From NCBI GenBank assembly GCA_963829055.1, contig CAWHHI010000004.1:608001-672000 (forward strand): a stretch of DNA of 64,000 nucleotides, given 5' to 3'. The position numbers and the translations under genes were made by a program. Source of the stretch: an uncultured Gemmatimonadaceae bacterium. Its GTDB lineage: Bacteria; Gemmatimonadota; Gemmatimonadetes; Gemmatimonadales; Gemmatimonadaceae. The notes under the pieces are model-generated. The model had not been told where the DNA came from. It did not search any database and was given only the letters and a program-made list of their open reading frames with translations. Position 1 is the first letter of the stretch. Every line of letters begins with the position of its first letter. Below are positions 10,649 to 63,221 of this stretch, piece by piece.

Positions 10649-11519
10649 AGGGGATCGTTCTCGCGGGCGGCACCGGGTACGCGCCTGTATCCCGTCACGC
10701 GGTCGGTCAGCAAGCAGCTGTTGCCGGTGTTCGACAAGCCGATGATCTACTATCCGCTGTCGACGCTGATGCTCGCCGGCATTCGCGACATGCTCGTCAT
10801 CTCGACGCCCGAGGACCTGCCGCGCTTCCGCGAGCTGCTGGGCGACGGGTCGCAGTGGGGCGTGACGCTGTCGCTACGCCGAGCAGGCGGTGCCTAACGG
10901 GTTGGCTGCAGGCGTTCGTGATCGGACGCGAGTTCATCGGAACGGATCGTGTCGCGCTCATCCTCGGCGACAACCTGTTCTACGGCGGCGGGCTGCGGCG
11001 CCATGCTCAAGCGCGTCGCGCAGCGCTCGTCAGGCGCGACCGTCTTCGGCTACACGGTGCGCGATCCGCAACGGTACGGCGTCGTCGAGATCGGCCGCTG
11101 ACGGCCGGCCATCGACATCGTCGAGAAGCCGGAGCACCCGCGATCGAACTACGCGGTCACGGGCCTGTACTTCTACGACAACGACGTGATCGACGATCGC
11201 CGCCGGCCTCACAGCCGTCGCGGCGCGGCGAGTACGAGATCACGGACGTGAATCGCGAGTACCTCCAGTCGTGACCAACTCAACGTCGAGCTGCTCGGTC
11301 GCGGAATGGCGTGGCTCGATACCGGAACGCACGAGTCGCTGCTCGACGCGAGCGAACTTCATCGAGGTGATCGAGAACCGGCAGGGACTCAAGATCGGTT
11401 GCGTCGAGGAGGTCGCGTTTCGCTGCGGGTTCATCGACGTCGATCAACTCGCTCGCATGGCGGAGCCGCTGCGCCAGACAGCCTACGGACAGTATCTGTT
11501 GCGCGTCGCGTCGGAGTAG
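10645..11519 (+). CDS. rfbA: Glucose-1-phosphate thymidylyltransferase; frameshifted
   Basis: [63 protein letters not shown]. Confidence 0.93.
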
Positions 11520-11534
11520 TCGACTGCGCCATGC

Positions 11535-12868
11535 TCAGCGCTGAGCGAACGCGGCTCGCGCCGGCAGCGCGGTTTCACGCGCGACTGCGGCCACACGCCG
11601 GAGTACGAGAGCAACGAGCCAGCCAAGCGCTACGCCGGCAAACACCGCCGCCCACTCCCACCAGCCGCCGAAGGCGGTGCCGGCGACCAGCGGCGCCACC
11701 ACGAACGCTAGCGTGACACTGGCGAGCAGCGCCGCACCGATCACGGTCGCTGTCGGTCGATGCCCCACGGGACGGTTGCGCGCTGGCACCGCCGCTGCCC
11801 ACCAGAATCCGATGGGCACCACGAGCGCGATCATCCAGAGCGCCGCGATCCACCGCGTGCCGCCATCCAACGGCAATGTCGAATGGGGAGAGCACAATCC
11901 ACCCCAGAGATGGCGACAGCGGCACCACCTCCTCGCGAGACTCGGTTCCCGCCTGCACGCCGGCGACGAGCGCACGATCGCGATGCTCGCACGTGAGGCG
12001 CACGAGGTCCGGATGCGCGCCGCTGGAAACCCGCAGTGCGTCTCTGAGAACAATGCGCGGCGACCGGAAACGCAGTTGCGCTGAGCGTGTTTTCTGAAGG
12101 CACGTGAGGTCCCAACCGCGCTGCTCGAGGGCGAATGGCTGGGTGATCTCTTCCGAGATGCGGACGATTACCGAGCGCCGCGGTTCGAGCCCGTCACGGT
12201 CGATCGTCGCCGTCGCCCGCCACGCGTCGCTCATGAGACGGCGGTCGAGCCCGAGCGATGTCGACGGAAAGCCTAACGGCAGATCGATGCCGTTGATGTC
12301 GAACGCGAGCAGGCGACCGGTGAACGGTTCGTAGCCCGAGCGCGGCGGCAGCCACTGGACCCACAACGAACGCGGCACGAATGCGGGCCCGAGTGCCCAG
12401 GTCGTCGCGGCGCAGGTCGCCGCGAACACCGCGCACCACGCAAGCGCGAGACGCGCCGCCGTCGCCGGTTCGGGGGCATAGCAGCGGTTTGCGCCGAAGC
12501 GCGAGCTCGATGCCGATCCAGCCGCCGAGTGAGTTCGACAGGATGTCGCCGAACGATGAATCACGACCGACGACGACGGCTATCTGCAACGATTCGATCG
12601 CGACGGTGGCCGCGACGCAGATCGCCAGCGGGATCCACCGGCGATTCAGCGCCAGCGCCAGCGCGAACCCGAGCGGCATGAACATGATGATGTTCGTCGC
12701 GACGTCGAGTGCGCCGAACTCGCCGCACGCGATGCACCAGAAGCTCGTGGTGATGACCGTCCACGGCGCAGGGGTGAGCGTAAAGAACGCGATCGCGATG
12801 CTCGAGATGATCGCGAGAATGGTTCCAACACGGCGGGAAGACAGGGAGCGAATGGTGGCCTCGTTAGG
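11535..12868 (-). CDS. VanZ-family membrane protein with C-terminal extension; frameshifted
   Basis: FWCIACGEFGALDVATNIIMFMPLGF..IESLQ..GRDSSFGDILSNSLGGWIG is VanZ-like; start uncertain. Confidence 0.7.
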
Positions 12869-14471
12869 TCACTGGTTTCCGGATGAGTGCACGTCGCATG
12901 GCGACGCACGCCGGGCCCGACTCCCCGTCGGTCCGTGGCGTAGCGCGAAGCGCGAGCAGCATGGTTTCCTGCGAATACGCGCGCATGACGTCGAACCGAT
13001 CGCAGTCGTGCAGCACCAGTCGGAAGACCGTCTGGTAGTCGGAATAGATCGGCGTGCCGAGGATGTGCGTGATCCGTTGACGCTGCAGGTACGGAAGAAA
13101 CGAAGTCGTATCCTGCTGAAGGACTTCTTCCCAGAACACGGACTGCCGCTGCGCGAAGTAGTACAGCGTGGCGTTCTTGGGAACGATGAAGCGTGCCAAT
13201 GGCGGCGTATGCGTTGCCGCGAACCGTGCGGCGTCGATGAAGTCGAGCGACGCGGGTCGCGCGCAATCGACGCGGGCACGGGTGCAGGCTTCCGCGCGCT
13301 CGACGAGAGTGGAATCGTTGAGAATCGCCGGCGCCGTCAGAAGAACGCCGAGCGAGGGCACGAGCAGCCGAGCGCCGGTCCTCAGTCGAGCAGACTGCTC
13401 GATCCGGTTGGCGACGATCCCGGCGCCGATGACCGTCAGCGCTATGATGACCGGCAGCACTGGCGCGAGGAAGCGCTCGAGATTGTACGGCCAGACCGTG
13501 AGCAACGCGCCGTACGTAACGGAGAAAACGATCACGGCGTTCCACCGACGCCAGGCGCTCACTGCCCCGACGATCGCGGCTCCGCCGATGATGACCATCC
13601 AGAACACGTTGTCGAACACGGTGCTCGGATTCAGCGGCAGCTTCAACTCGGTGAACACCATCTGGCCGCCGTACGCGGTCACGTTCGTCTTGATACGGTG
13701 GACCAGTGTATTGGCGAATGAGCCTTCGGCGGTGCGTACATCGATCGCGTCATCGACGTACGAACGTCTCACCTCGCGCTTCGGCGCCATGGCGGTCCAG
13801 GCGAGCCAGCTGCCGACGGTGAGCGACGACGCGAGCCCGAGCGCAACAACCCAGCGAACGCGTCGGCGAAGGAGCCAGTGCGCGCCCAGGCTGAGCGGGA
13901 TCGTCACCCCAGCGCTGCGGACCAGAGCCGCGCTGATGGCGAGCGCGCCCGCGAGCATGGCGCGTCGTCCGCTCGGCAATGTGCGCTCACTCCAATCAGC
14001 CGCCCACAGGGAGCACAGCAGCAGCCCGGTGAACGTCGCCTCGGTCACTGGAGCGCCGGCCACTTCGACCAGCGTCGGATTTACGGCGCATATCGCGGTG
14101 ACCAGCAGCGCGAGCTCCGGCGACCAGCGACGACGGATGACATCGAAGAGCGCGATCAGCCCCACTACCGAAAACAAAATGCCCATGCCCGCGATCACGT
14201 CCAGCCGTTCGCCGAAAAGCGTCCCGAGGAACGCGAGCAGCGCCGGGTATCCCGGCGGAAAACGGGCGGCGATAGGTTCGGCGATGAACTGAACCTCGCG
14301 GTACGAAAATCCGCGCAGCGAACGCGCGAGGAGCAGGTAGGCCGCGTCGTCGCCGAACGTGAAGATCTCACGGGCGCGGACGGTCCATGCCAGACACACA
14401 TGACCCACGAGAACGGCGGCCAGGAGCACGCGCTGCCGAACGGCGAGCGACACCGGTTGTTCGGTCACCAC
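12864..14471 (-). CDS. Polytopic membrane glycosyltransferase (ArnT/PMT-like, GT-C fold)
   Basis: Intact 535-aa ORF; GDDAAY, FPPGYP, TEATF, RSAG, ERFLAP motifs; many hydrophobic helices. Confidence 0.7.
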   Translation of the reverse strand: MVTEQPVSLAVRQRVLLAAVLVGHVCLAWTVRAREIFTFGDDAAYLLLARSLRGFSYREVQFIAEPIAARFPPGYPALLAFLGTLFGERLDVIAGMGILFSVVGLIALFDVIRRRWSPELALLVTAICAVNPTLVEVAGAPVTEATFTGLLLCSLWAADWSERTLPSGRRAMLAGALAISAALVRSAGVTIPLSLGAHWLLRRRVRWVVALGLASSLTVGSWLAWTAMAPKREVRRSYVDDAIDVRTAEGSFANTLVHRIKTNVTAYGGQMVFTELKLPLNPSTVFDNVFWMVIIGGAAIVGAVSAWRRWNAVIVFSVTYGALLTVWPYNLERFLAPVLPVIIALTVIGAGIVANRIEQSARLRTGARLLVPSLGVLLTAPAILNDSTLVERAEACTRARVDCARPASLDFIDAARFAATHTPPLARFIVPKNATLYYFAQRQSVFWEEVLQQDTTSFLPYLQRQRITHILGTPIYSDYQTVFRLVLHDCDRFDVMRAYSQETMLLALRATPRTDGESGPACVAMRRALIRKPVT

Positions 14472-14486: not shown

Positions 14487-16013
14487 TCAGCCGGCAGCTG
14501 TGCGCCGCGACGATCTCGCGGCCAACTCCTCCGCCGCATCGAAGAAGAGCGCAGCCTGCGTCGAGCGGTCGAACCGGCCATCGTGATTGAGCGACGTTGG
14601 TCGGATCCCGGCGCGAAACTCGGCGAACCGCTTGGCGATCACGCGTTCGATTCCGTCCACGTCGTACGGCGCGATCACGTCGGCTTCCGTATCGCGCAGC
14701 AACGCTTCGGTCGCGCCCGCAGGTTCGGCCAGCGCGAGGAGCCACGCATCGAATCGCATGTACTCGAAGAGCTTCGCCGGGATCGTCACCGTCGTTCGCA
14801 ACGGCAGGCTGACGAGGAGCGAGACACCAGCGAGAAACTGCAGTGCGTCGCGCCTCGGTCGAAATCCGTGAGCGACGAAATGCTCACCCAGGCCCGCTTC
14901 CGCCGCTATGGTCGTGAGCGGAATGCCCTCGCACGCGTCGTCTCCCATGAACTCCACGCCGAATTCATCCGGCGTCGCGCCCGTTGCACGGGCGACACGG
15001 GCTGCAGCCTCGAAGAGCGGACGCGGATCGCGACCGAGGTAGATCATGCCGGCGAACCCCACGACGAATCGGCGACCAATGCGCGACGGGGGTAGCGGTT
15101 CGCGGTCCGCTCCGTTCATCACCGTGCGCACGCGGCCGCGGAGCGCCGGGTATTTCGCGACCTGTAGCTCCTCGTGGGCCTTCGACGTCACGACGAGCAG
15201 GCTCGCGGCCGATACGCAATCACGCTCGTGCCGCTGGGCGAGCCTGCGCCAGGTGTCGCTTCGAAACTCGGAGGGCATCGCCGAATCGTCGGACCAGGGG
15301 TCACGCATGTCCATCACGATCGGCAAGGCATGACGGGCGGCGATGCGGCGCGCTGCGTCATGAGCAGCGTGCGGGGGGCCGGAGCTCACGACGATGTCGT
15401 ATCGATTCTTGGCAGCGAGCCGGGACCCGAGCGCCGCCGCTCGACGAGCCAACGCGTCGGCCAACTGAAAATGCACGCGGCTTCGAAACGCCCGACGCCA
15501 GAGCGACGCGTCCTCTCCACCTAACGCGACCGTCCGATCGCTGCCGTCCAGATGCCCGCCGAGCGGCGCCTCGGATGGTTTGGCGCCGACCGTTCCGACC
15601 CACCCTGCTCGGCGCGCCGCTCGGAGCATTGCGCGGTACCAGACGGGGTTCTCGCCAGTGAACCCGAACATCCGTACGCCCGGCGGGAGTCGCTCGAGTC
15701 TCGTCATGTCCAGCGGGCCCATGAACTGCGGCTCCAGCGCGACCACATCGAATGCCCAGCCCCGCTCGGCTCCGCAGCCTACGAGCGAGATCCAGCGCAA
15801 CGCACCCACTTCCGCGCTGGGCGCAAAATCGAAGAAGACGAGGAGCCCTCGGCGGAGTGGGTTGGTGACCGGCGCGGTCGCGTGGAACGCAATGGGATCG
15901 CCGCCTGGCGATGCGCCGTTCGTGGAGCCGAGCGGACTGAAAGCGGGCGCGGTCCGATCCCCTTCGTTCGCGAGAGAGCTGACAGGCGGTGAATTCCGCA
16001 CAGCGCGGGTCAT
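14487..16013 (-). CDS. Glycosyltransferase family 4
   Basis: FAPSAEVGALRW, VSSGPPH, DMRDPW, NGAD, AGMIY.GRDP, PAKLFEY. Confidence 0.8.
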   Translation of the reverse strand: MTRAVRNSPPVSSLANEGDRTAPAFSPLGSTNGASPGGDPIAFHATAPVTNPLRRGLLVFFDFAPSAEVGALRWISLVGCGAERGWAFDVVALEPQFMGPLDMTRLERLPPGVRMFGFTGENPVWYRAMLRAARRAGWVGTVGAKPSEAPLGGHLDGSDRTVALGGEDASLWRRAFRSRVHFQLADALARRAAALGSRLAAKNRYDIVVSSGPPHAAHDAARRIAARHALPIVMDMRDPWSDDSAMPSEFRSDTWRRLAQRHERDCVSAASLLVVTSKAHEELQVAKYPALRGRVRTVMNGADREPLPPSRIGRRFVVGFAGMIYLGRDPRPLFEAAARVARATGATPDEFGVEFMGDDACEGIPLTTIAAEAGLGEHFVAHGFRPRRDALQFLAGVSLLVSLPLRTTVTIPAKLFEYMRFDAWLLALAEPAGATEALLRDTEADVIAPYDVDGIERVIAKRFAEFRAGIRPTSLNHDGRFDRSTQAALFFDAAEELAARSSRRTAAG

Positions 16014-20055: not shown

Positions 20056-23000
20056 ATGCCATGCATTCGCCGAGCGGTTGCTCGCGGTTGCACCTTCGCT
20101 GTCCTCGCCACGGTCGTCGCGTGTTCTGGTGACGACGGTGTCGGAATCGATACGCCCGTAGGAACATCCACTCTTGCGGTCCGCCTGTCTCCCAAGAATG
20201 ACTCGTTAGGCGTCGGAGAGACCAGGCGCTTTACGGCCCAGGTCGTGGGCCGGGCCGGCGTGACGCACAGCACACCTGTCGCGTGGGTATCGCTCAACAA
20301 CGATGTCGCCACGGTGAGCACATCGGGCGATGTCACGGCGTTGGCGCCGGGCTTCGTCAGCATCGTTGCGACCGTCGGCACGAGCGCCGACACGGCGAGC
20401 GTCTACGTTCCCAGTGCCCTCATGGTCGAGCCGAACGCGGTCGTCACCGCGGTGGGTGAAGAAGTGAAGTTCGCTGCCAAGAAGCGAAGCGGCGCCGGCG
20501 CGTCCGGCAACACCTTCACGTGGTTCTCGTCCAACACGAAGATCGCCACGGTGACGGCGGACGGCATGGTGACCGCGGTCGGGCCGGGCGAGGTCACGCT
20601 CATTGCGTCCTCGGGAACACAGACCGGAAGCGCAGTCGTCTCCGTTCGCACTAAGGACATCGCATCGCTGCGCCTCGCGCCGGCGACCAGTTCCGTCTAT
20701 CCCAAAGCGACGACGCAGCTCCAGATCACGGCCTACGACGATGCCGGCCGCGCCATGGCGCTGCCACAGGGCACTGCGCGGTGGAGTACCTCCGACGCGA
20801 ACGTGCTCGTCGTCGACGACCTCGGAACGGTAACGGGGAAGGCAAAGGGCTCGGCGGTTGTCACCGCACGCATCGGCTCCAAGTCCGCCACCGCATCGGT
20901 GAACGTGCTCGACGAGCCGGTCGCGACGGTGAACGTCGCGCTCGACGCGTCGACGCTCGATCTCGGTCAGGTCACGCAGGCCGTCGCGACGCTGAAGGAC
21001 GCGACCGGCTCTACGCTCGGCGGCCGCACTATCGCCTGGCAGAGTTCGAATCCGGCCATCTCGACTGTGAACGCGCTCGGCGTCGTGACTGCAGTGGCGC
21101 GTGGAAGCGCGACGATCAGCGCGATCGCCGACGGTAAGGTCGGCGGTGCACCGGTGACGGTCGCGACCAAGCCGATCGGCTCGGTCGCTATTTCGCCGAA
21201 TCCGGCATCGGCAACCATCGGTCAGTCGGCGCAACTTTCAGCAGTGGTGAAGGACGCGGCAGGTGCCGCGCTCGTCGGCCGCTCGATCACGTGGGCCAGC
21301 AGCAATGCTGCTGTCGCCAGCGTTTCCAGCACGGGCCTGGTCAGTGCCGTTGGCGCTGGCTCGTCAACGATCTCGGCGACGGCCGATGGCATCTCGGGCC
21401 AGGCGACGTTTACCTCCGCCACCGTCAAGACGGCGTCGGTCGTGATTTCCCCCGGCTCGCCTAACGTGCAAGTCGGTCAGGACGTGCAGCTCAGCGCCAC
21501 CGCGTATGACGCGGCCGGCAATGTGCTCGCGGCGCGAGTCCCGGCGTGGAGCAGCTCCAATCCGACAGTCGCGACGGTATCGAACTCCGGCCGCGTCACA
21601 GGCGTGTCGAAGGGCAGCGCGAACATTACCGCCGCGGTCGACGGTAAGAGCTCGAGCGCAGCGGTGGCAGTGAATGCCCCGCCGCCGGCTCCCGTCGCGT
21701 CGCTCACGGTCTCGCTGAGTTCGTCCGCGTTGAACGTCGGACAGTCGACGCAGGCGGCGGCCGTGGCCCGCGATGCGGCCGGCAATGTACTGACGGGACG
21801 TGCGATTGCGTGGAGCAGCGCGGCGACCGACGCTGGCGACAGTGTCGAGCACCGGGCAAGTGGCGGCGATCGCCGCGGGCTCGGTCAGCATCGTCGCGTC
21901 GAGCGAAGGCGTGACTGGTTCTGCTACCCTCGTCGTGGCCATCGCCGCGCCGCAACCGGTGGCGACGGTATCGCTGTCGGCCACGTCGACGTCGATGCTG
22001 TTCGGTCAGTCGCAGCTCATCGCGGTCTCGGTGCGCGACGCGTCAGGCAACCAGCTCGACGGGCGCACGATCGCGTGGTCCAGCTCGAATCTTGGCGTAA
22101 TCACGGTTTCACCTTCGGGTCAGGTGCAGGCCGTGGGCGCTGGGTCGTCGACGATCATGGCGACCAGTGAAGGCAAGAGTGGCACGATTTCGATCACCGT
22201 TGCGGCACCAGTCGTGCCGGTATCGTCGGTGAGTCTCGCGGCGGGGTTTACGTCGCTGGCGCTGGGCCAGACCATGCAGGTCACCGCGACGCCGAAGGAC
22301 AGTCATGGCACCCCCCTAGCGGGCCGCACGATCACCTGGTCGAGCTCCGCACCGTCAGTGGCGTCGGTGTCGCAGACCGGTATGGTGACGGCGCTGACCG
22401 CAGGGTCGGCTGTCATCAACGCGACGGTTGAAGGCGTCACGGGATCGCTTCCGATAACGATCAACCCGGCTGGTGGAACGGTCGCGACGGTTCGCGTCAC
22501 ACTCGCGAGCGCGGCGATCAATGTCGGCCAGAGCACACAGGCGACGGCGACGGCGAGCGATGCCGGCGGCACGACGGTCGCTGGCGGAACGCCGACGTGG
22601 GCAAGCTCGAACACGTCCGTCGCGACGGTGTCGGCAAACGGTTTAGTGTCCACGGTCGCAGCCGGCCAGGCCACGATTAGTGCTACCATGGCAGGCAAGT
22701 CGGGCGGTGCGTCACTCAGCGTGAGCACGATTGCGACCGGCGGCTCGCTGGCGACGCTCCCGGAGTTGCCGCGGTCGGTGCCCAGCGCCACGGCGTCCGC
22801 GCCGTCACGCGTCGTTCGGATTCCGGCGGGTGGTGATTTGCAGGCGGCGCTGAATGCCGCCCAACCAGGCGATGAGCTGCGCCTGGCCGGCGGAGCAACG
22901 TGGACGGCGAACTACACACTGCCGTCTCGTGCCTGCAGTGCCGTGGACCGCTGGATCACGGTGCGAACGGATATCGATGACTCGCAGTTGCCGGGGCCGA

Positions 23001-39443: not shown

Positions 39444-39565
39444 ACCGTCGACGCCGGAGCATGCGGCGAGATGTGTGAGATCGGGCGCCGCGCGATCGCG
39501 CGGCGCCCCATCACCCGACCACCGCGCCTAACGAGCGCAGTGACGCGCGTCGGCGCACGGTCCGT

Positions 39566-49998: not shown

Positions 49999-51030
49999 GC
50001 GCCGCGATCGCATGGCGGTGCACGGCTCGTTAGGCGTCGCCTGCCCGCGGTGTCGGGGCGATCTCGCGCGCGGGCCGACGCGTTCGACTGTGAGCGCTGC
50101 GACGCGCACTTTCCCGTGGTGCTGGGCATTCGCCGATTTCCGTCTCGATCCCGATCCCGTGGATCGGCCTCGAGGACGATCGCGAGAAGGCCCGCCGCCT
50201 CGAGGAGCGGTTCGCGCGGTGCGTCGCTCGAGGCGATGGTGCGGACGTACTGGTCGATGACGCCTGGCACGCCGGCGGCGCAGGCCGTCGCGCTTCGTGC
50301 ATCACGTCATGCACGGCGTACGCGCGATCGCGCGAGTGGGTCGAGCGTCTCGAGCCGCCCGACGGTCGACCGTCGGGGCCGTGGCTCGATGTCGGCACGG
50401 GGACAGGCGACCTGGCGTCGTGCGGTCGCGGAGCACGGCATTCGTGCCGTCGGCGATCGACATCGCCATGCGATGGCTGGTCGTCGCGCGCCGCCGCGCG
50501 GAGCTCGCCGGCGTCACACGTCGATCTCATCTGCTGCAACGCCGAGCACTTGCCATTCGCCGATCGGCACGTTCGCGCGCGTCGTCTCGGTCGGAACGAT
50601 CGAGCATTGCGCGACGCCGAGCGGGCGCTCGGCGAAGTCGACGACGCGTGCTGGCGCGCGGCGGCGACGTCAGGCTTCGGACGGTGAATCGCTTCACCAT
50701 GCTGACCGAGCCGCACGTCGGGGTGTGGGGCGTCGGCTTCGTGCCGCGTCGGATGGCCGATCGGTACGTGCGCTGGCGCGGCGGTCAGGGCTACGCGCAC
50801 CACCGTCCACTGTCGTCGCGCGAGCTGCGACGCGGGCATGCGACGCGCGGGATTCAGCGCCGTGCGCGTCGAGCGCGGCGTCGCTGCTGCGCGACCGAGC
50901 GCGCACGGCTAGGCGGTGCTGCAGTGGGCGCGTCGGCGCGTACGAGCGGCGCGACGGCATTCCCGCTCGTCGAGCGCGCGCTTCGCGGCGTCGGCGCCGC
51001 TGCTCGAAGCGCAGTGGGGTCGCGGCATGA
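49995..51030 (+). CDS. Class I SAM-dependent methyltransferase with an N-terminal Cys-pair (Trm112-like) segment; frameshifted
   Basis: CPRC..CERC..FPVVLGI, WLDVGTGTG, ID...RWLVVA, CCNAEHLPF, EPHVGVWG. Confidence 0.7.
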
Positions 51031-51808
51031 CTGCGCCACGCATCTTCACGCCGGAGTACTACGCGCGCATGCGCGAGCTCGAGGCTGGCAGCTGGTGGAA
51101 CGCCGCGATGCGCGACATCGCGGCAATGCTGCTCAACGACGTTCAGCTGCCTGCAGCGGCACGATACTCGACGTCGGATGCGGGTCGGGCCAGACGCTCG
51201 CGTGGTTCAGTCAGCGGTTCGGCGCATGGCGGACACTCGGCTGCGACATCTCGCCGGACGCGGTGACGGCCGCCGCGACGGCTCGGGGTTCGAGATCACG
51301 CGGGCATCGGCGCTCGCGCTCCCGTATCCGTCCGGCACCGCGGACGTCGTCATCTCGCTCGACGTGCTGCAGCACGTCCCACTTGGCGGCGGGGACGTGA
51401 CCGCGCTTCGCGAGATGCGCCGCGTCCTCAAGCCAGGTGGGTGGCTGTTCGTTCGGACGAACGCACAGAGCTTTCCGGCGACCGCGGACGATCACGAGTA
51501 CCAGTTCCATCGCTACGAGCCGCGCGAGCTACAGCGACAAGCTGGCGGCAGTCGGCTTCGAGGTGCGTCGTCTGAGTCGCGTGAACGCTCTGCTCGGGTC
51601 TGGCGGAGATTCCGCGTGAGCTGCGCGCGCGGCGCGTGCAGGCGGCGGACTATCATGGCATTCTCGCGACGAGCAACGGTCATGCGTCGTGGACGTCTGC
51701 GGCGAAGCGGGCGTGGGTTCGTCTCGAGGGGCGGCGGTTCGGCGCGGCGTTAGGCTTCCGGCCGGCCGCACCATTGTCGCCTTGTGCCAGGCGCCCGACA
51801 GTCGATGA
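51027..51808 (+). CDS. Class I SAM-dependent methyltransferase; frameshifted
   Basis: ILDVGCGSG, LPYP..TAD...LDVLQH, EMRRVLKPGG, HRY. Confidence 0.82.
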
Positions 51809-53101
51809 ATCGCACTTGCCCACGTGCGACCGGACGGAGATCCGAGCAGCGTGACCGCCATCGCGAGGTCTCGCGACAACGACGGCCCGGCTGCTGTCGC
51901 GCACCCGTTGGCGCGACGCCTCGCGGTCGTCGGGCCTGAAGAGGAGCTGTTGCTGCTCACCGCCGGCGGCGTCGCCAATGACGATGCCATTCGCGTCGCG
52001 CGGTGGCGACATCAACTGGGCGCGGTTCCTCGGACTCGCACAGCTCGAGCGTGCGGTGCCGGTGATTTTCCCTCGTCTGCCGACCCTGGTTGGTGACGCC
52101 CTCCCGACGACCGTGCTCGATCAGATGCGCCGAGCTCGCGCTCGTCTCGGATTTCGCGATGCTGCACCTCGAGACGCGGCTGCGTGAGTCGTTGAGCGTG
52201 CTGCACGGCGCCGGCGTCCGCGTGATGCTGCTCAAAGGTGCCGCGCTGGCGCACACAGTGTATTCCGGCGTTCGACAGCGGCCGATGTCCGACCTCGACC
52301 TGCTGGTCGATGCCAGCAATGCGCGCCTCGCTCGCCGCGTGATGCTGTCCGCGGGATGGCGCGAGATCGTCGGTGGCATACCAGACAGCGTGTACGATCG
52401 CCATCACCACCTGCCTCCGCTTCACGACACGAGGTCGCCGGACCTGCAGCTCGAGATTCACACGGCGCTGTTTCCGGAGCGGCAGCCGTTCGCGTTCGAC
52501 GCCCGCGACCTCTGGGCCTCTGCTCACCCGTTAGGCAAGGGATTCCCCGAGGCATACACGCCGGATGCGATTCACTCGCTTCTCCACGCCAACCTCCACT
52601 TCCTGTGGTCGCACCAGGGACGGTTCGGCGTCTGGCGAACCATGCGCGACGTCGATGCGCTTACTCGCAGGCGACGCCATCGACTGGGACGCATTCGTCA
52701 GAACCGCGAAAGCCAGTCGTGGCGCGACGGCGTGTTACTGGACGTTTCGAATCGCGACACTGACTGCCGGTATTGCAATTCCCGACGTCGGTGATGGCGG
52801 CTCTCCGGCCCCCGCGAAGTCGCTACGTCCTTCAGGCGATCGAGCGACACTTCCTGAAGAACCTCTTCCCGGTCGAATTCGCGTGTCCTTCCGTCGCTCT
52901 GGATCACGCGCTGTGGGAGCTGGCGGTGATGCCCGGTTGGAGCGGACACGGCGAGGTCCGACCGTGGGACGAGGAACCCGACTTCGTGGTGCCGGGCGAG
53001 GCAGTCGGAAGCCGTCGCGCATTCTTCCGAAGAGGGAGCGAGTGCGTCGGCTGCTCGCCTCTCCTGGATACATCCGCACGCTGCTGCGCTCTCGTAGCTG
53101 A
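51805..53101 (+). CDS. Nucleotidyltransferase (NTP_transf_5-like family seen in some lasso clusters); frameshifted
   Basis: VMLLKGAAL...Y....RPMSDLDLLV, LEIH, D.IH.LLH..LH; start overlaps the upstream methyltransferase stop (ATGA). Confidence 0.82.
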
Positions 53102-53515: not shown

Positions 53516-55458
53516 ATGAGTGGATTTGTCGCGATCGTTGATCCGAGCAAGCGGCTCCTCGCGGAGGCGAGCGTCGCGCGCATGCTCGGCGCGCTGGCGC
53601 CGCGCGGTGATCGCTCAGAGGTCAAGCGCGACGGCGAGTGCGTGCTTGCTGTCACTCGATTCGAGTGGGAGCTCGCCGATGGGTTTTCCGGACCGACTCT
53701 TCTCGTCACCGACGGCGACCTGAGCGTGGTCGCGGACGCGAGCGTCTACTACCGCGATGACCTCCTGCGATCACTCCACGGGGCGGGCGTGCGCCCAGCC
53801 GGTTCATCGGTCGCCCACCTCATCGCCGCGGCCTATCGTGCGTGGGGCAGTGATTGCACGAAGTATCTCGAAGGTGATTACTCGTTCGTTATCTACGACC
53901 ACAAGCAGCGTCGAACGTTCGCGGCGCGCGACTTCCTGGGTCGTCGACCGCTCTACTTCGTCGAGATCGGCGACGCGCTGTTGGTGTCGTCGTCCGTGAG
54001 CGCGATCGTGGCGCACCCGGCCTGTTCGACGGAGCTCGACGACGTTGCGCTCGCCGAGTTCGTTTGTGTGAGTCTCGCCGGGGCCTCGACGCACACCATA
54101 TCGCGCGGTGAGCGCGGTCCCGCCGGCCACGTGGCTCGATCCGCGACGCGCTGGGGCACGCCCGGACGCACCAGTATTGGCGTCTCGACCTTAGCGACAG
54201 TGCAGACGCCGAGTCGTTCGATGCGGCGAGTGAAGAGCTCGGCGACCTGTTGGGTAACGCGATCGTCGAACGACGTGCGCTGGCCGGCCCCACGACGATC
54301 TGGCTGAGCGGCGGGTATGACTCGCCGGTGATGTTCGGCGTCGGCAATGCAGCACTCGACCGTCTTGGTCTCGGTCGACTTGGCCCCGGTGTCGTTCAGC
54401 TACCCTGTCGGCGATGCGGGGCGAGAGGACGAGCTGATCGAGGAGATCACGAATTTCTGGGCAACACAGCCGACGTGGCTGTCGATCGATGACGTTCCGC
54501 TGCTCGCCGAACGCAGCGCGAGACGCTGCCCGTGCCGACGTTCCGTTCCAGCACGCCTTCGAGAACTGGCTTCGTGCGTTGTTAGGCGCCACCGCACGCG
54601 CGGGCTCGCGCGTCGCGCTCTATGGCGACGGTGGCGACCAGCTGTTCGCGGTGTCGACGGTGTTTCTCCGCGATCTGTTCGGTTCGCTGAAATGGCGCGA
54701 GTTGCGGCGTGAGTGGCGGGCGTTCGGCGGCGGCGGGGCGCGGGCGCTGTGGAACTATGTGGCTCGACCGGTTGTTGCCGAGCGAGTGCGGGCGGTGCGA
54801 GGGAAGAGCGGGCCACAAACGTCGTTTCCGGATTGGGTCAGCCGTGAGTTCGTGGCGACGACATTCGTTGGAGCGGCTGGAGGCCGAAGCGGAAGCGGCG
54901 CTCGAAATGACGAAGGAGGACAGGCGGCCACCGAGACGCGCCGGTCGCTTGGCAACCCAATGGTCACGCGCGTGTCGCGGCTTTCTCGGGTCTCGGCACT
55001 GGAGCACGGAGTGGAGCTCCGGGCGCCCTTGTTCGATCGGCGCATCGTGCGAGTTCGCGCTGCGGCGTCCTCGTCGGGAACGCGCATCAGCGGGCGCTGT
55101 CAAACACTTGCTTCGACGCTGCGCGCGCGACGTCTTGCCGCCAAGTGTGCTGGCGCCCGCGTAAGGCAAAGACCGGAGTGCTCACGGACTATTTCGCGCG
55201 ATCTTTTCGCGCTGATCCGAACGGGCTAGTGAGTGACGTTCTGACGCGATCCATTCTTGCGCAGCGCGGCATTGTTGATGGTGCGGCAATGCAACAGGCG
55301 TGGCATGAATACAAGACTCGCGGGGCCGGCGCGGGTGGATATTTGTTCTTGCTTTTCAGATTGAACTTTGGCTTCGTGCCCGTGTTCCTAACGCGGTAGT
55401 TACACCCGTAAATGCAGATCAATGGCTCAGAGTGCCAGCGGCAGGGTTCGTGCAGTAA
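53516..55458 (+). CDS. Asparagine-synthetase-like ATP-dependent lasso cyclase candidate (C protein); frameshifted
   Basis: Starts MSGFVAI (no catalytic Cys2); ARDFLGRRPLY, PP-loop WLSGGYDS, YGDGGDQLF, LRAPLFDRR, KHLLR, R..K, ELWLR; immediately upstream of a lasso-type precursor. Confidence 0.75.
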
Positions 55459-55787: not shown

Positions 55788-56753
55788 TTGCGAGACCACG
55801 CCATATTCGGCGGCTGTCTCCGATCGGAGATTCCGCTCCCCGAACTCCCGCCCATTGACGCCGCCGAGCCTGACTGGTTCTTCCATCGCGCGTCGACGCT
55901 CGTCCCGGCGTTGCAGTACCTCGGTGACGACCCGTCGACGCCACCCTGCGGGTTCGGTGCAGCACAATCGCGTGACGGCTTTCGGTTCGATTTCGACGAC
56001 ACCGGAATCTTCGACATCACCAGCGGCGGCCGCGACATCGCCTGGACTGCCCGGCAGGCATCCGCCCTCGAGCTAGTGCGCGCCGATCTCGTTAGGCGGC
56101 GTGTTCTCGGTGGCGCTTCATCTGCAGGGCCTTCTCTGTCTGCACGGCAGCGCCGTCGCGGTCGCCGACTACGGCTGTCGGGTTCCTCGCCAACAAAGGG
56201 GCGGGCAAGTCGACGCTCGCGACCGCCCTCTGCGCTGCAGGCGGAACGCTGATCACCGACGACATGCTTCCAGTCGACCCGAAGGCGCCTGTGATGGCGT
56301 GGCCATCAATGCCCGCCGTGCGTCTTCTTCACGACTCGGCGTCGCACCTTCGTTACGCCAGCGGGTCGACGCATCCGGTGACGAACAAATACCACGTGAA
56401 CGAGCTTCCGTCGCACCAGGTCGAACGGCGTCGTCTTCGCGTTGGCGCCATCTACGAGCTCGCGCCGGTGCCTGCGGGTGCTGGGGTGCCGCCCGTGGAA
56501 CGTATTCGGGTGACGGGCACTGCGGCCGTTGGCACGCTGCTGCGTCATCATCGCGCGGGAACGCCATCGGCAAGGCGGAGACGATGAACCTGTTCCTGCG
56601 CGCCAGCGACATCGTTCGCGCGGTGCCCGTGTACCGTCTCCAGGTCGCGCGGGATTTCGATCGCTTGCCCGACGTCGTGGATCAGATCCGGCAGTGGCAT
56701 TCCGCAGCGCATCTCTGTCGACGCCGCTGGATCGCACACGACGGTCACCGTGA
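55788..56753 (+). CDS. HPr-kinase-like P-loop kinase (lasso tailoring-kinase type); frameshifted
   Basis: HAIFGGCLRSEIPLPEL N-terminus, LCLHGSAV, Walker A NKGAGKST, LITDD, VPVYRL...RDF..L. Confidence 0.78.
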
Positions 56754-58610: not shown

Positions 58611-58626
58611 GCCGGTGCCGGCCGGC

Positions 58627-60555
58627 CTAACGCGGCGGCTCACGTCGACGACTCTCGGCGGTCCGACGCCGCGGCCGGGATCGAAGAGCGGCTTCTCCAC
58701 CTCGGCGAACGGCGCGCGCACCAGCATGATGCGATCGAGCATGACGCCGTCGTGGTGCATCCAGACGTTGAGCACGTGCGGTCCCGGCTCCACGATGTTC
58801 AGCACCGCGAGCGTGGTGTCCGTCATCTGGAATTGAACATCCCACTCGAACGCGTCACGCGCCCAGCCCCACTGCGCCTACCGGAAACCGACCGAGTCGA
58901 TCGGCGAGCCGCACCTCTTCGTTGTCGAGCCCGACGTGAATGCTGCGACTGGCGCTATCGGGCGCCTGCTCCGCGAGCGTACACGACGTAGGTTCCGGGC
59001 TGGTCGAATCCAGATGTTGTATCGGAGCTCTGGCGCGTTCGCTCGAAACTCGCCGGCTCGCACGATCGTGCCGCGCTCTGGGACCGGCCACGACGTAGCC
59101 GTCGCCGGAGAATCCTGCGAGGTCTCGCGCGACGGTCCAGCTCTGCCCGTCGCGCGGCGTGTTGCTCACGAAGTGCTCGGCCTCGATGGTCGACGCGGCC
59201 ACCGTCCTCGACGAACTGTCCCTCGGCGGCAATGACGTTGACCCGCACACCTCGCGGGCCGGCTCGCCGACGTACTCGTGCGTCACCGTGAGCTCGAACG
59301 CGTGAGTCGGCGACGGTCAGTCGCAACGAACGATGCCGTCGCGCCGGTGTCCGACTGTCAGCCGAACGCGCGGCCCGTCCACCTGCCGCCATCGGTACCG
59401 GAGCGCCTGGCCCGCGTGCCGCATAGCTCGCCTCCCGTCGAGCGTGACCGTGTCGCCAACGACGTGCGTCGACGTGAATCCCGGGTGCGCGATGGGCGTC
59501 TCGTTCGCGTCGGCGCGCTCGAGCAAGCCGACGCGCGTTGCCGTGGTAGTACTTCGCCATCACGCTGTCCGGCAGCGGCCACTTCTCGGTGAACGGAAGG
59601 AACATGTCCAGCCGCTGGCGATACGACTTGAGCCAGCGGAACGTGTTCTCCATGTAGTCGGTGCCGAACATGACCTGGTCCTGATATCGATCGAAGAACG
59701 ACAGCTCCGCCGAGTCGAGCGTCGCGAACTCGACCTTCGGCTGATGGGCGCCACCCTCCGTGTACATGTTCGGGTACTTCTCGAGCATCTCTTCGAGGTA
59801 GGTGCGATCGCCGGCGGCGCCCGCCCAGTGCGCCGCGATCAGCTGGAGGCGCGGGTGCTTGCGCAGCACGCGCTCGCGCTGGAGCATGAGCGATCTCCCA
59901 GCGCACGGTCTCGGTTTGCCCCGTTAGGCGCCTGATGCTCGCCCTTGTACGCGCCGCCCAGGTGCACGAGCACCGGGACGCCCAGCCGCTCGGCGGTACT
60001 CCACAGCGGGTCGTACGCCGGGCGTGTCGAACGGGACGAGCGTTCCCGCTGTGTCGCGCGTCCAGTAGTTGACCGTTACCGGCGCCCGCCTGGTCCTTGA
60101 TCTTGAGGCCCGACGGCGCCGCGGCGCACGGCGTCCTCGAGCAGGCCGGCGACCCAGGTCGGGTAGTCGGCCGCTCGCTTCCGACGAAGACGTCGTTCGC
60201 GTCGTCGATCGGCACGTTGGCGAACAGCTTGAACCGAGCGGTGTCGGGGTACAGCGCGATCCGCTCGGCTCACGCGATCGCCGAAAATGCCATTTTCGAG
60301 CGAATTGTCCGGCGCCTTGAAGTCGACGACGAGCTCCACGTGCATCTCGTTCATCGTGCGCGTGAGCTCGTCGAAGTTCGGGCGCTTTCCCGGCCACGTC
60401 TCGACGCCGCCGAGGTGCGTGTGAATGTCGATGATGGAGAATCGCGGCGGCGGTGCGTGCGGCGGTGCGGCATCGCGGCATCCGCCGAACACGATGCGAG
60501 CAGGCAAGCCGCCGCCGTCACGGCCGGCCTAACGCGGACCGTCCGGCGCGCTCAT
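58627..60555 (-). CDS. Lipoprotein amidohydrolase (amidohydro_2-like) fused to PKD-like and carbohydrate-binding-like C-terminal domains; frameshifted
   Basis: LLASC lipobox; IIDIHTH, GLKI, VPVLVH, IAAHW, VMFGTD, YYHGNARRL; then VTLDG..YRWRQVDGP, IEAEHF..GFSGDGYV, LNVWMHHDG..LDRI. Confidence 0.65.
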
Positions 60556-62097
60556 CGCGGACGCGCCGACGCCGGAGCCTGCCACGGCCGAAGTATCCAG
60601 CGGCGTTCGTCGGGGCGAAGACACAGGAAGCGCGATACCGCACGCGACGAGGTAGGCCGCCGCCCTCCACGCGATCGCGGGCCCGCCGGCGTGCGGCACC
60701 CACCATCCGCGCGGCCGCGGTTGCGACAAGCGCGAGTGCAGCAGCGGCCCGAGCGGTAGCGAAGAGCTCGGCGAGCGCCGTGCCTACGCAGCAACCGTGT
60801 CGCCGTCGCCAGGAGGATCACCGAGTTGCCCGACGAGAAACGCGATGCCGACGCCCATGCCACCCATGCCTGCGACGAGCCAGCGCGCGAGCGCGATCGT
60901 GAGCAATTGGCCGCTGACCGTGCATGACGAGAAATCCGGAAATGTCATCGAACCCGATCAGGAGCGCCTGATAGACGCCCGCAATCGAGCAGCACTGCTT
61001 CCGCCAGCACGAACACGGTCACGAGCGGACATCGCGTCCAGCGAACTCTGGCCGAGTACAGCAGCGTGAGCCACTGCGCCGGGAACAGCACGAACACCAG
61101 CGTCGACAGCACCACGAGCACGATCAGAATGCGCAGGTACTCCGCGACCGCCGCGATGCGTTCGGTCTTCGGAGTAGTGCGGTTGACGAGCGGCGTCAGA
61201 TACAAGCCCGTTCGCCTGGTTCAAGCACGAGCCGTATCGACACTCCGATGCCGTACGCGGCCGCGACGAATCCGGCCTCGATGGCGCCGTGCGTCGACAG
61301 CAGCATCGATCGCGCGAGGAGGTACGCGAACGGAGACGTCAGCGCGAGCACGTACATCGACGCCGCGAACGTCGTGAGTCCGGGTTGCGAACGCAGCGCA
61401 CGGACCGCCGACGCCGTGCTCAGGTTCGTCGATAGTCCGAGGCCGAGCGATCGCCCGAGGTACCACTGCATGCCCGACGATCGTGATGACGAGCACGATC
61501 GCGTTGGCGACGTACAGCCCGACGAGTCCATCGCTCCGCACCCCGATGGCCGCGCCGCCAACGGTCAGGACGGCGCCCAGGAACGCCGCGATCGCCGATT
61601 CGCGGTGACGTTCGAGCGCGGCCATCGCATTGCGAAGCAACGGTGCGATCGCGAATGGCGGGCACTCCCATCAGTGCCACCATCAAGGCGGATCGGTATC
61701 GCAGCGAGCCCCTCTCCGAAAAACGACGGCCACGCGCTGGCGATGCCGGTACCGATCGCCGCTGCCACGATGGAGGCGAGCACGAGCAGCATAACGAGTG
61801 CGTCGTAGATGCTGCGCGTCTCCTCCGCGCCACCATCGCGGGCTCGCGCAAGGAACTTGAGACCGACGAACGGAATGCTGAGCGATCCGAGCTGCGCGAC
61901 GAGCGACACCACCTGATCGATGACGCTCGCGACGCCCACGCCGGCGGGCCCGAGGAGCACAGCGAGCACCTTCGTGCGCGCGAGCCCGGCCAGCATGGTG
62001 AACGCCTGAATGCCACCAAGCGCGACGAATCGCCTGGAGGGGGCGGAATGACAGGCGTCGGAACCGGATCAACCGCCTGGGGCGCGCTTACCCCCAT
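60552..62097 (-). CDS. wzx: Wzx-like oligosaccharide flippase; frameshifted
   Basis: ARTKVLAVLLGPAGVG, many TM segments, EAGFVAAAY, LYLTP, LTLLYS..F. Confidence 0.75.
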
Positions 62098-63221
62098 AAG
62101 TGCGCGAGCCCGCGCTCTCGCACATGATCTTCGATGTCGCCGATGAAGCGATCCGCGAACGCGTCCGGTGAGAACTGACGAAACTGGGCCGACGCGAGGT
62201 AGTCACGTCCGGCGACGCGCAGTCGTTCGTACTCCGCGTCGCTGATCGAGTCGAGGTAGCGCTGCATCTCGTGGTAGTCGGCGAAGCGCCGCGCATCGAT
62301 GTAGCAATTCGGGTCCACGGCCTCGCCGATGTCTGGTGCGCCAAGGTAGATCGGCACGACTCCGGCATACAGGCAGTCGAACAGCTTCTCCGTGATCCAG
62401 CCGTCGAGAATCATGTTCTCGTAGCAGATCGCGAATCGATAGCGGCTCATCGCCTCGTGCTTGTCATCGACGGGACCGCGCCACGTCTGCCGTACCGCGT
62501 CGCCGAACTCGGCCTCCATTTCGCCGAGCCCATTCTCCCACAGGCGGCCCCAGAGATCGATGCCGCCATTCGCCGCGAAATGTTTGAGCGCGCGGAGCCG
62601 CTCGGTGTACAACTCTCCCGCCGCGAGCACCGCCCGCTTGTTGCTGTTCACGATGATGATGCCGCGCCGATCACGGCGGCTCCAGTGCGGCTCGATCGTG
62701 TGGTCGAACGGCATCGGGATCCGGAACGGGCGCAGCGTCGGCACGTTAGGCACGAACGGGCGCAGCTGGTCGGCGGTCGTCCACGAGTAGATCGTCCGGA
62801 AATGGTGGGCGAGCTCCGGCGTCGCTTCGTACATGGCAGGATCGACGACGACGACCTCGAAAAGATAGAACGCGTTGATCAGCACGTCGTCGCGCTTGAG
62901 CAGCGACTGGTACCCGTCGTGGACGCCGAACGACACATACACGTTGGCGCCGGTGCGTGCGGTGGATGACTTGCTCGCGTCTGCGAGATAGTCCGCGGTA
63001 TCGATCGTCACGCCATGCGACGCGAGGCGCTCTCTCAGGCGAAGCCACGGGCAGCAGCGCACCGTCGCGATTGAACCGTGAGTGCGGATCGAACAGCTGA
63101 TTGCCGTAGAAATGCCGCGTGAATGGGTCGAGAAATACGCGGATGCGGGAGAGCGTCCATTCGCGCGCGGCGCGGTCGTACTCGCACCCGCTGTGTCGCC
63201 GTTGGCGGTTGCGCCGTTCAC
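62088..63221 (-). CDS. Glycosyltransferase family 10 (alpha-1,3-fucosyltransferase-like)
   Basis: GT10 signature YRFAICYEN..DGWITEKLFDCLYAGVVPIYLGAP..YID; frameshifts at the 5' end. Confidence 0.85.
   Translation of the reverse strand: MNGATANGDTAGASTTAPRANGRSPASAYFSTHSRGISTAISCSIRTHGSIATVRCCPWLRLRERLASHGVTIDTADYLADASKSSTARTGANVYVSFGVHDGYQSLLKRDDVLINAFYLFEVVVVDPAMYEATPELAHHFRTIYSWTTADQLRPFVPNVPTLRPFRIPMPFDHTIEPHWSRRDRRGIIIVNSNKRAVLAAGELYTERLRALKHFAANGGIDLWGRLWENGLGEMEAEFGDAVRQTWRGPVDDKHEAMSRYRFAICYENMILDGWITEKLFDCLYAGVVPIYLGAPDIGEAVDPNCYIDARRFADYHEMQRYLDSISDAEYERLRVAGRDYLASAQFRQFSPDAFADRFIGDIEDHVRERGLAHLWG

Follow-up and report, generated by a model that had tools for sequence, protein, structure and literature searches.

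Short words that are hyper-abundant throughout a genome are, to our knowledge, known from only a few groups, the described cases being the uptake signal sequences (USS), the DNA uptake sequences (DUS), the highly iterated palindrome (HIP1) and the crossover hotspot instigator (Chi). The readers of most such words took decades to find or remain unknown. The cyanobacterial HIP1 (GCGATCGC), for example, is described in the cited excerpts as 15- to 300-fold over-represented, of unknown function, and recognized by two methylases (PMC5861425, PMC4390886, PMC13756078). The subject of this work is another octamer, GCCTAACG (reverse complement CGTTAGGC; hereinafter, the word), found in a 64,000-nucleotide stretch of DNA, here called the window (G000:C4:608001-672000), from the genome of an uncultured member of the Gemmatimonadaceae (G000; 7.78 Mb, 20 contigs, 66.6% GC). 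The word is also abundant in some Verrucomicrobia of the Chthoniobacterales type; both are common, little-cultured soil groups. Literature searches by the letters of the word and by topic yielded no description of it, and the letter matches seen were unrelated. The explanation that we tentatively favor, with a confidence somewhat short of an even chance, is that the word is the recognition site of a small, very basic, unnamed protein of a putative DNA-binding type.

The window contains 26 exact copies of the word, 12 of which read GCCTAACG and 14 CGTTAGGC on the plus strand, compared with an expectation of 0.93 (standard deviation 0.96, maximum 4; none of 100 dinucleotide-preserving shuffles reaches 26). 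A preliminary description of this DNA had listed 26 exact copies, every one of which is present at its place, along with about 8 near-variants; the four variants that it named are real, but the total is too low, given that the degenerate pattern [GAC]C[CA]TAAC[GA] matches 40 words in the window, i.e., the 26 exact ones and 14 variants. The genome as a whole carries 5,004 copies (2457 and 2547 on the two strands), or 0.64 per kb, with densities of 0.48-0.80 per kb on all 20 contigs. Markov models of order 0, 1, 2 and 3 predict 297, 131, 102 and 258 copies per genome, respectively, the first of these figures being equivalent to 2.4 per 64 kb, in agreement with the earlier zero-order estimate of 2-3 per window. 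The excess over the order-2 expectation is 49-fold, the greatest of any 8-mer, and by raw count the word ranks 31st among 65,147 8-mers. Under the maximum-order Markov model the word is masked by the enrichment of its own 6- and 7-mers; rankings of lower order were used instead. The flanks of the 5,004 copies display only weak preferences, at positions -1 and +8 to +10, and otherwise no consensus; therefore, the unit is the 8-mer itself. Single changes are tolerated at position 1 (A, 17 times the expectation; C, 9 times), position 8 (A, 15 times) and position 3 (A, 7.7 times), and the remaining ones occur at 0.2-0.8 times the expectation, except for a mild excess (2.1 times) of GCCTGACG. This mismatch profile looks like a binding specificity.

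The preliminary description took the word to be a DNA-level signal that lies mostly inside genes and forces AT-rich, rare codons in different frames. The gene calls used here come from a home-made caller (6,416 calls, 74% coverage) and are incomplete, so that in-gene placement can be only partly checked; 3,195 of the 5,004 copies in the genome fall within called genes, and within the window the proportion is 11 of 26, the other 15 being uncalled or intergenic. As to the codons, all four stop-free frames are occupied genome-wide, with 1284 copies in xCG TTA GGC, 889 in xxG CCT AAC G, 597 in xGC CTA ACG and 425 in xxC GTT AGG C, and the word accounts for 1,284 of the 2,812 TTA codons. The other two frames produce stops, and 199 of 801 TAA and 170 of 1,650 TAG stop codons lie within the word, figures that are rough inasmuch as the caller ends frames mechanically. 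Where the peptide permits, the word is often written: at 889 of 1941 occurrences of xPN[ADEGV] and at 1283 of 5758 occurrences of [ASPT]LG. Shuffling synonymous codons within genes (4 runs) leaves 130-145 copies against the 3,195 real ones, a 23-fold difference, so that the word stands far above both the Markov and the codon-shuffled backgrounds. Given this protein-preserving shuffle, the use of all four non-stop frames and the high density outside the called genes as well, the signal indeed resides in the DNA; codon or peptide bias is ruled out by the shuffle together with the four frames, which encode four different peptides.

The possibility that the word is an artefact of base calling or assembly, or else a by-product of codon use or of a peptide motif, is virtually negligible. 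What speaks for an artefact is that the assembly (completeness 85.9%) looks prone to indels: the MetH gene (window positions 2500-7200) is broken up among three or more reading frames, the domains of asparagine synthase appear as separate fragments (18388-19311, 31411-32217 and 53516-54307), and rpoB on contig C19 lies in two frames, all of which points to either assembly indel errors or pseudogenes. However, a systematic substitution would leave some 8-mer missing in proportion, and there is none: the largest deficit, about 1,340 copies, is that of the GC-only word GGCGCCGC (2,725 versus 4,062), nothing comes near 5,000, and the one- and two-mismatch neighbors of the word are all present, near expectation. 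The substitution is thereby ruled out, and with it the base-calling artefact that had been named as a way in which the signal could fail; the codon shuffle and the four different peptides dispose of the by-product. Moreover, the word is dense in dozens of metagenome-assembled genomes (MAGs) from other projects, including contigs named k141_ and NODE_, which we take to be the products of short-read assemblers. Twenty soil or rhizosphere sequencing runs from 15 studies contain 28-46% of the words sampled from window positions 30001-40000, and contigs from the runs of 4 studies cover the copies at 32170, 33679, 38719 and 39526, none of the differences listed falling on these copies (87 further differing places lie outside the list).

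All 7 genomes of the genus that includes G000 (g1) carry 2,500-5,100 copies each. Among 151 genomes of the family, representing 77 genera and drawn, like the other genome samples in this work, from larger groups, the count ranges from 1 to 6,360; 60 genomes have at least 85 copies (hand count), and the density in word-rich genomes is 0.2-1.3 per kb. The contrast can be 60-fold within a single genus (about 3,900-4,100 copies in G066 and G166 versus 66 in G124); other pairs that differ in word state are G065/G165 versus G048, G057 versus G049, and G072 versus G038. Genera either have the word or lack it, and on a quick RpoB tree of 41 genomes, chosen partly by word state, this state requires 6-7 changes, hence no fewer than 6. 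A search for a dialect, i.e., a different word in its place, found none in four word-poor relatives (200 kb each), against 110 versus 2.9 for the word in a G000 control of the same size.

Comparison of the rpoB-rpoC locus in G000 and 40 relatives reveals how the word is written. None of the 20 word-poor genomes has a copy in this locus, and in the word-rich ones the word recurs in the same columns: rpoB 969 (15 genomes), 1635 (12) and 1292 (11), and rpoC 1094 (10). At conserved Ala/Pro-Leu-Gly sites of rpoB and rpoC, all 20 word-poor genomes use CTC- or CTG-type codons and word-rich genomes use TTA (frame xCG TTA GGC), the intermediates TTG and CTA being rare; the word is written by synonymous rare-codon rewrites, e.g., CTC/CTG to TTA. 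The comparison of synonymous sites in orthologs that had been suggested as a check thus finds the word at the same columns in separate word-rich lineages. Within the genus, turnover is fast: in an alignment of G000, G001 and G005 (73% nucleotide identity; window positions 28-50.5 kb), 2 of 29 word columns are occupied in all three genomes and 4 of 29 in two. Shared permissive columns combined with fast turnover indicate that the word is continually re-created in each lineage wherever sites allow. The copies also keep apart, gaps of less than 200 bp accounting for 4.3% of the total versus 12.3% expected in G000. Given the sharp specificity, the exclusion of close copies, the strand symmetry and the re-creation at permissive sites, the word behaves as the site of a sequence-specific reader of double-stranded DNA.

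The best candidate for this predicted reader, in most lineages of both phyla, is a small basic protein encoded outside the window (G000:C3:271467-271769, 100 amino acids; referred to below as the candidate protein). Two degenerate words no more than 12 bp apart are found at 13 places in G000, and an exact 8-bp tandem, CGTTAGGC TGTTAGGC, precedes this gene. Among the 61 genes listed with at least two upstream words, it is distinguished by its small size, basic tails and the exact 8-bp tandem; for comparison, at least two exact words within 100 nucleotides upstream are present in 4 of 6,410 G000 genes, and at least two degenerate words in 13. In genus g1, tandem 8-bp arrays lie 50-90 nucleotides before the start of the gene and consist of 2 words in G000, 3 in G001 and 6 in G004. 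The G000 array is located 7 nucleotides upstream of a predicted TGGACA-16-TATCTT promoter, the CACTATCTTA box of which is conserved in G001 and G004; the predicted promoter (G000:C3:271410-271469) ends 7 nucleotides before the ATG, which suggests a near-leaderless message. The protein consists of a conserved core between Lys/Arg/Ala-rich tails and has 21 homologs that are 51-93% identical, 17 of which have the word or a tolerated variant within about 220 nucleotides upstream. It shows no N-terminal hydrophobic stretch (by eye) and therefore is probably cytoplasmic. A previously considered reader candidate, C16:476885-477473, with three variant words upstream and a weak Cro/YdaS-like match, was rejected since it does not track the word: it occurs in 24 of 151 genomes, some of them word-poor, and is missing from g9, g56 and g55.

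The candidate protein, by contrast, co-occurs with the word across the family. A search with its 65-amino-acid core finds matches in 50 of the 151 genomes, namely in 50 of the 60 with at least 85 words and in 0 of the 91 with fewer. With the cut at 150 words the figures are 46 of 55 versus 4 of 96, and after removal of the unpublished genomes G052, G150 and G013 they are 48 of 58 versus 0 of 90. All associations between word and protein are correlative.

The second phylum provides a parallel case. A GTDB scan for two copies 400-430 bp apart identifies dense two-strand loci almost only in MAGs of Gemmatimonadaceae/Gemmatimonadales and of Chthoniobacterales/Verrucomicrobiae/Spartobacteria. Whole-genome counts amount to 2,136 copies in a Chthoniobacterales chromosome and 3,510 in a Verrucomicrobiae MAG, compared with 39 and 28 in Nitrospirota and Planctomycetota controls, respectively. 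In the order of G173 (Chthoniobacterales), the word-rich genomes number 5 of 71, with 352-2,512 copies each, and no other exceeds 104 copies; a verrucomicrobial protein is found in all 5 word-rich and in none of the 66 word-poor genomes. An hhalign comparison of this protein family with that of Gemmatimonadaceae yields a probability of 96.3% (E-value 1.8e-9, 65 columns). The Gemmatimonadaceae profile, run against 28 genomes and phage records, gives only weak matches, confined to the two word-rich Verrucomicrobia, and none in 10 word-poor controls, and a search with the verrucomicrobial query found nothing in g47, g56 and g80, with no positive control in that search. Among the verrucomicrobial homologs, three of six have CGTTAGGC 18-24 nucleotides before the ATG and a fourth has a one-mismatch copy; the genes adjacent to the candidate gene are not conserved between the phyla. 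A locus that looked word-rich is also found in G172, an Acidobacteriota MAG in which word pairs exactly 25 bp apart recur dozens of times (e.g., C4:1248337-1270742). G172 was rejected as a word-rich genome, given 135 copies versus 475 of a control word; the pairs belong to a dispersed repeat element with two copies.

With regard to fold, the AlphaFold model of the candidate protein contains three strands (residues 20-23, 32-41 and 47-56) and a helix (63-87), with a predicted local distance difference test score (pLDDT) of 74-85 in the core. In a VIA-align comparison, the highest-scoring DNA-binding domain is 6sy0_A, the AP2 domain of Plasmodium falciparum SIP2 on DNA (Z 6.1, root-mean-square deviation 2.8 over 58 residues), where Z below 8 can be due to chance; the AP2-type 2gcc_A (Z 4.2), the integrase arm-binding 3jtz_A (Z 4.1) and other matches carry similar weight. 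In a neighboring Atlas cluster in Verrucomicrobiota, 15% of the members carry PF00847 (score 0.86), which can serve only as a lead. An AP2-like fold of the candidate protein is a lead only.

Under the explanation that we favor, the candidate protein would occupy the word, and hence one chromosomal site per 1.5 kb or so, the tandem words that precede its own gene would serve in autoregulation, and the thousands of weakly favored sites would be kept by selection or by recombination-linked drive. The predicted role of the bound protein is in nucleoid organization or as a mark of resident DNA. Several results weigh against this explanation. The cut at 85 copies was chosen after the data had been seen; the Fisher test value of 1e-29, computed on 50 of 61 versus 0 of 90 owing to a counting error of one genome, ignores kinship, and independent contrasts on the RpoB tree comprise 3 that agree, none opposite and 2 ties (sign test, p 0.25). 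The five protein-bearing verrucomicrobial genomes may be a single clade. No candidate protein is detected, even by profile, in 10 of the 60 word-rich genomes (G057, G116, G066, G166, G090, G141, G114, G161, G139 and G115), including the 100% complete G057 with 4,469 copies, G116, and G066 and G166 with about 0.95 copies per kb; therefore, the protein is not needed to keep the word there. A mere user of the word would produce the same nested pattern, in which all genomes with the protein fall within the word-rich set. Upstream words are lacking in 4 of the 21 homologs and in 2 of the 6 verrucomicrobial ones (G230 and G205), and a promoter scan of G173 did not call the TTGACC-N17-TAGGCT site seen by eye. 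A search of Pfam, including PF00847, gave no match at E-values up to 10 for 4 members and up to 1 for 21 members; neither a sequence search of the Protein Data Bank with the family nor a Foldseek search with the model returned anything, and none of 22 genomes has a Pfam AP2 domain over cut-off. For 5,000 sites to be maintained individually by selection is a demanding requirement. Finally, uptake sequences, too, are reported to be evenly spaced, strand-symmetric, rare in foreign DNA and accumulated in phages (PMC6776037).

The candidate protein may be a user of the word and not the cause of its spread, and it is probably not what makes the word accumulate everywhere, because the densest genomes include word-rich ones without it. 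Either another reader or driver exists, uptake bias being the best-fitting known mechanism, or the lineages that lack the protein use an unrelated analog.

The alternative that the word is itself a DNA uptake sequence of the USS/DUS type, its copies being spread by biased uptake and recombination (molecular drive) and the small protein being a secondary user or unrelated, is a serious one, albeit unlikely. It would explain the word-rich genomes that lack the protein, and it fits the density of 0.2-1.3 per kb on equal strands, in all non-stop frames and without extended flanks, the deficit of close pairs, the fast turnover with re-creation at permissive codons, and the general depletion of one-off core variants, as if these were absorbed into perfect copies. 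ComEC and ComEA-type genes are present in all 5 genomes searched, but equally in word-poor ones, and the ComP_DUS domain (PF16732) is over cut-off in none of 44 genomes, sub-threshold pilin-like matches occurring in word-rich and word-poor genomes alike. Uptake sequences of Neisseriaceae have dialects, as stated in the portion of the report cited (PMC3630211), but the word-poor relatives revealed none, and the occurrence of one and the same word in both phyla speaks against a receptor that drifts. There is no excess of inverted orientation among closely spaced copies (13 of 40 pairs within 60 bp), and natural transformation in these groups is not documented in the literature searched.

Word-free DNA is a further point in favor of uptake. 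Three contig-end stretches of 31-50 kb (C6:5440-55037, C11:1-46789 and C6:591808-623330) have no copies; they encode housekeeping genes (aroC, trp genes, ftsK, pepA, DAHP synthase and folD), second copies of which, with 47-65% protein identity, are found elsewhere in G000. This duplicated gene content speaks against mobile genomic islands, and the stretches are probably foreign DNA, or chimeric or contaminant DNA in the MAG, flagged by the lack of the word, which would thus be of practical use as a marker of such DNA. The absence of copies from the first 10.8 kb of the window, noticed in the preliminary description, is confirmed, with the first copy at 10892, and belongs to a word-free gap of 12.6 kb around the window start (C4:606306-618891). 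That gap is in the tail of the spacing distribution and is unexceptional for about 5,000 gaps with a mean of 1.53 kb; the MetH gene inside it is single-copy in G000.

Phages extend the comparison. Application of the same pair-pattern scan to IMG/VR retrieves G167 (31 copies, mostly in frame xCG TTA GGC, in 17 kb that include scaffold, portal and terminase genes), G169 (44 kb, 98% complete, with portal and terminase genes; 29 copies, 16 of the 22 in-gene sites being in frame xCG TTA GGC), the provirus G170 (18 copies) and G168 (IMGVR_UViG_3300010342_000385; 31 kb), in which all 10 copies lie within the first 6.4 kb, so that it looks like a mosaic of word-rich and word-free modules. Such copies fit uptake, since temperate Pasteurellaceae phages accumulate USS to host-like levels and large lytic ones do not, according to the cited part of that work (PMC6776037); G169, however, has no detectable tyrosine integrase (PF00589). 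Given that temperate Pasteurellaceae phages gather USS, the phage copies are in themselves compatible with uptake as well as with a reader inside the cell. Neither a profile search of 5 phage records nor a search of IMG/VR by pattern and tblastn found the candidate protein, and no large terminase (PF03354, PF03237) was found in G000. The word may help to link phages to hosts, as USS does in Pasteurellaceae.

A HIP1-like origin is improbable; here the word would lack a structural reader of its own and would depend on a sequence-specific DNA methyltransferase, or on repair or recombination biased toward turning near-matches into matches. The scale and style are the same, an 8-mer inside genes and patchy across lineages; one-off variants of the core are mostly depleted, about 2-fold, and a bias of this kind would also act on phages during replication in such hosts. 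The word, however, is not palindromic, i.e., not its own reverse complement, and the depletion of one-off variants is alike for transitions and transversions, so that there is no signature of deamination or of very-short-patch repair. A search for Vsr was negative in all 3 word-rich genomes and positive in 1 of 2 word-poor genomes.

Integrons deserve separate attention. The core sites of attC follow the consensus R' GTTRRRY and R'' RYYYAAC, and the word is an R' core plus one base; its copies could serve IntI as secondary, attG-type sites, or otherwise serve cassette traffic. The word-poor genome G021, of the same order, contains a chromosomal cassette array (G021:C95:1-24000) in which 26 same-strand copies in 24 kb are true attC sites, i.e., 26 hairpins of 92-138 nucleotides of the form GCCTAACA ... 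CGTTAGGC, the spacing in such arrays being 300-1,000 bp; arrays on one strand are likewise present in Lysobacter, Planctomycetota and some viral contigs. Of the 151 family genomes, 88 have IntI over cut-off, integrons being very common in Gemmatimonadaceae. A universal attC core would explain one word in two phyla without dialects. Furthermore, attG sites are reported as possible entry points for cassettes into genomes, and natural transformation as a source of DNA for their recombination (PMC12614218). Nevertheless, this origin of the genomic copies is quite improbable: IntI is as common in word-poor genomes (G007, G008, G009, G011, G016, G124, G075, G068, G047 and G049), and it is missing or fragmentary in the densest genus, g9 (fragments in G014, none in G099 and G147). 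Attempts to find attC-like pairs in G000 give 41 versus 30 in a control arrangement, which is no enrichment, and the flanks of genomic copies lack attC structure; by reasoning alone, cassette insertion followed by precise excision would not write the word.

A combination of these ideas is speculative and rather unlikely: the two unrelated soil phyla would share a chromosome tag, the word every 1-2 kb, read by an AP2-like protein, so that resident DNA and tag-copying phages would count as self, and, the tag being the universal attC core, cassettes would arrive already tagged. If true, this would couple a self-mark to the soil cassette pool and would explain the lack of drift into dialects.

A polar signal of the Chi type for RecBCD or AddAB, or of the KOPS type (FtsK-orienting polar sequences) for FtsK, is very improbable and already largely refuted, although the word is an over-represented 8-mer and phages that carry it could gain protection from exonucleases. 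On the arms of contig C16, which has a clear switch of GC skew and gene strand, 328 of 591 copies (55%) read CGTTAGGC on the inferred leading strand, about the proportion predicted from a slight preference for the coding strand. Forward and reverse copies are balanced in 395 kb of loci from four other word-rich genomes, which speaks against KOPS-type polarity there. In phage G169, the polarity can be accounted for by the co-orientation of its genes together with the TTA frame. Among 5 genomes searched, RecC is present solely in the word-poor G049 (0 of 3 word-rich), and the AddAB-type PDDEXK_1 domain has no strong match in g9 (3 genomes), G066/G166, g55 (3 genomes), G109, G138 and G086, strong matches being found in g1, G072, G141 and 12 of 20 word-poor genomes. 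Thus, the earlier argument against Chi and KOPS stands, on the near-symmetric C16 arms and on the nucleases missing from several of the densest genomes. In G068, a word-poor genome with AddAB-type genes, the top over-represented word of a 200-kb sample is TGGTGGTG/GGTGGTG (83 versus 23), which presumably resembles the Chi-like words of other bacteria.

As reader or writer, IntI, Vsr, RecC, AddAB and ComP are rejected because none of them co-varies with the word. Of the readings proposed at the outset, a nucleoid or partition site has gained a candidate protein; an uptake-like sequence fits most of the chromosomal statistics but comes without a receptor; repair is not favored by the lack of Vsr in 3 of 3 word-rich genomes.

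The copies in the window illustrate these patterns. Positions 12800-45700 are largely a surface-glycan cluster, with glycosyltransferases of families GT1, GT2, GT4 and GT10, a heparinase II/III-like protein, a polysaccharide deacetylase, a Big_2 repeat protein and a GFO/IDH/MocA oxidoreductase. The Big_2 gene (20056-22170, plus strand) contains two copies, 20204..20211 on the minus strand (frame xCG TTA GGC) and 21459..21466 on the plus strand (xxG CCT AAC G), and so does the GFO/IDH/MocA oxidoreductase gene (38184-39443, plus), at 38719..38726 (plus; xGC CTA ACG) and 39401..39408 (plus; xxG CCT AAC G); the copy at 39526..39533 (plus) is located between the latter gene and the gene at 39566-40774. 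In frame xGC CTA ACG are also the minus-strand copies 32170..32177, in an asparagine synthase fragment (31411-32217, minus), and 33679..33686, in the heparinase II/III-like gene (33199-35319, minus). Frame xCG TTA GGC is used by 24648..24655 (plus) on the coding strand of the gene at 24513-25730 (minus) and by 52529..52536 (minus) in the gene at 52090-52794 (plus). The copy at 58625..58632 (plus) is in frame xxC GTT AGG C of the gene call at 58575-58826 (minus), and the last one, 62744..62751 (minus), is in frame xxG CCT AAC G of a glycosyltransferase-10-like gene (62088-63011, minus).

Four further copies are placed by the alignment with the two relatives in the genus: 29143..29150 (plus; column 1636) is specific to G000, the relatives having GCCAAGCG/GCCGAGCG; 30414..30421 (minus; column 2912) and 50028..50035 (minus; column 24600) are shared by G000 with both G001 and G005; and 48541..48548 (plus; column 23108) is shared with G001, not G005. 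The copies at 10892..10899, 12271..12278 and 32539..32546 (plus) and at 37833..37840 (minus) are in uncalled or intergenic DNA, and those at 46171..46178, 46708..46715, 46999..47006, 51748..51755, 56090..56097 and 59922..59929 (minus) and at 60527..60534 (plus) are in uncalled DNA. The four named variants all belong to tolerated types: CGTTAGGT (the complement of ACCTAACG) at 12862..12869 (minus) and ACCTAACG at 15519..15526 (plus), both 17-fold enriched genome-wide, CCCTAACG at 26800..26807 (plus; 9-fold), and TGTTAGGC (the complement of GCCTAACA) at 54580..54587 (minus; 15-fold).

The on/off state of the word between sister genera makes comparative genetics possible, and the candidate reader is concrete and cheap to test, being a 100-amino-acid protein with an 8-bp site. 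Should the protein prove to bind the word, it would represent a novel kind of sequence-specific nucleoid protein and could help to explain how thousands of sites persist in the face of codon preference; should it not, the pairs of on/off genera would be material for finding the true driver.

Among the known systems, the USS of Pasteurellaceae has several features in common with the word: it is likewise non-palindromic, present at about 0.5-1 per kb on both strands, located in genes in all usable frames, evenly spaced, rare in foreign DNA and accumulated by the phages of its hosts (PMC6776037). Unlike USS, the word lacks AT-rich flanks or a longer consensus and has no predicted pilin receptor; it is on or off among genera with no dialect and is identical in a second phylum. 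The DUS of Neisseriaceae, a self-tag read by the dedicated DNA-binding protein ComP, shares with the word the character of a hyper-abundant watermark of similar density (PMC3630211, PMC3868556), but ComP_DUS is over cut-off in none of the 44 genomes, gene ends show no inverted pairs, dialects are lacking, and the candidate reader, unlike ComP, is small and probably cytoplasmic. HIP1 is likewise an octamer in tens- to hundreds-fold excess, found in genes and patchy among lineages according to the cited passages (PMC5861425, PMC4390886); it is palindromic and tied to two methyltransferases, whereas the word is asymmetric and its candidate partner would be a non-enzymatic binding protein. Chi and KOPS are also short over-represented chromosomal words, read by DNA-processing machines; unlike them, the word has no replichore polarity, RecBCD and AddAB are absent from several of the densest genomes, and the enrichment is far stronger and runs against codon preference. 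With attC, the likeness is one of letters, the word being a preceding C plus the exact R' core (GTTAGGC/GCCTAAC) of the attC sites of this order, with one copy per attC in the G021 array; unlike attC, the genomic copies are lone and double-stranded, without a paired hairpin, and IntI does not co-vary with them. As for the candidate protein, it differs from the AP2/ERF domains in the lack of a Pfam AP2 match, the Lys/Ala-rich tails and the stand-alone small size, but the three-stranded sheet packed on one helix in its predicted model may be a likeness to these domains and to the integrase arm-binding domains, the Z values being in the range of chance arrangements.

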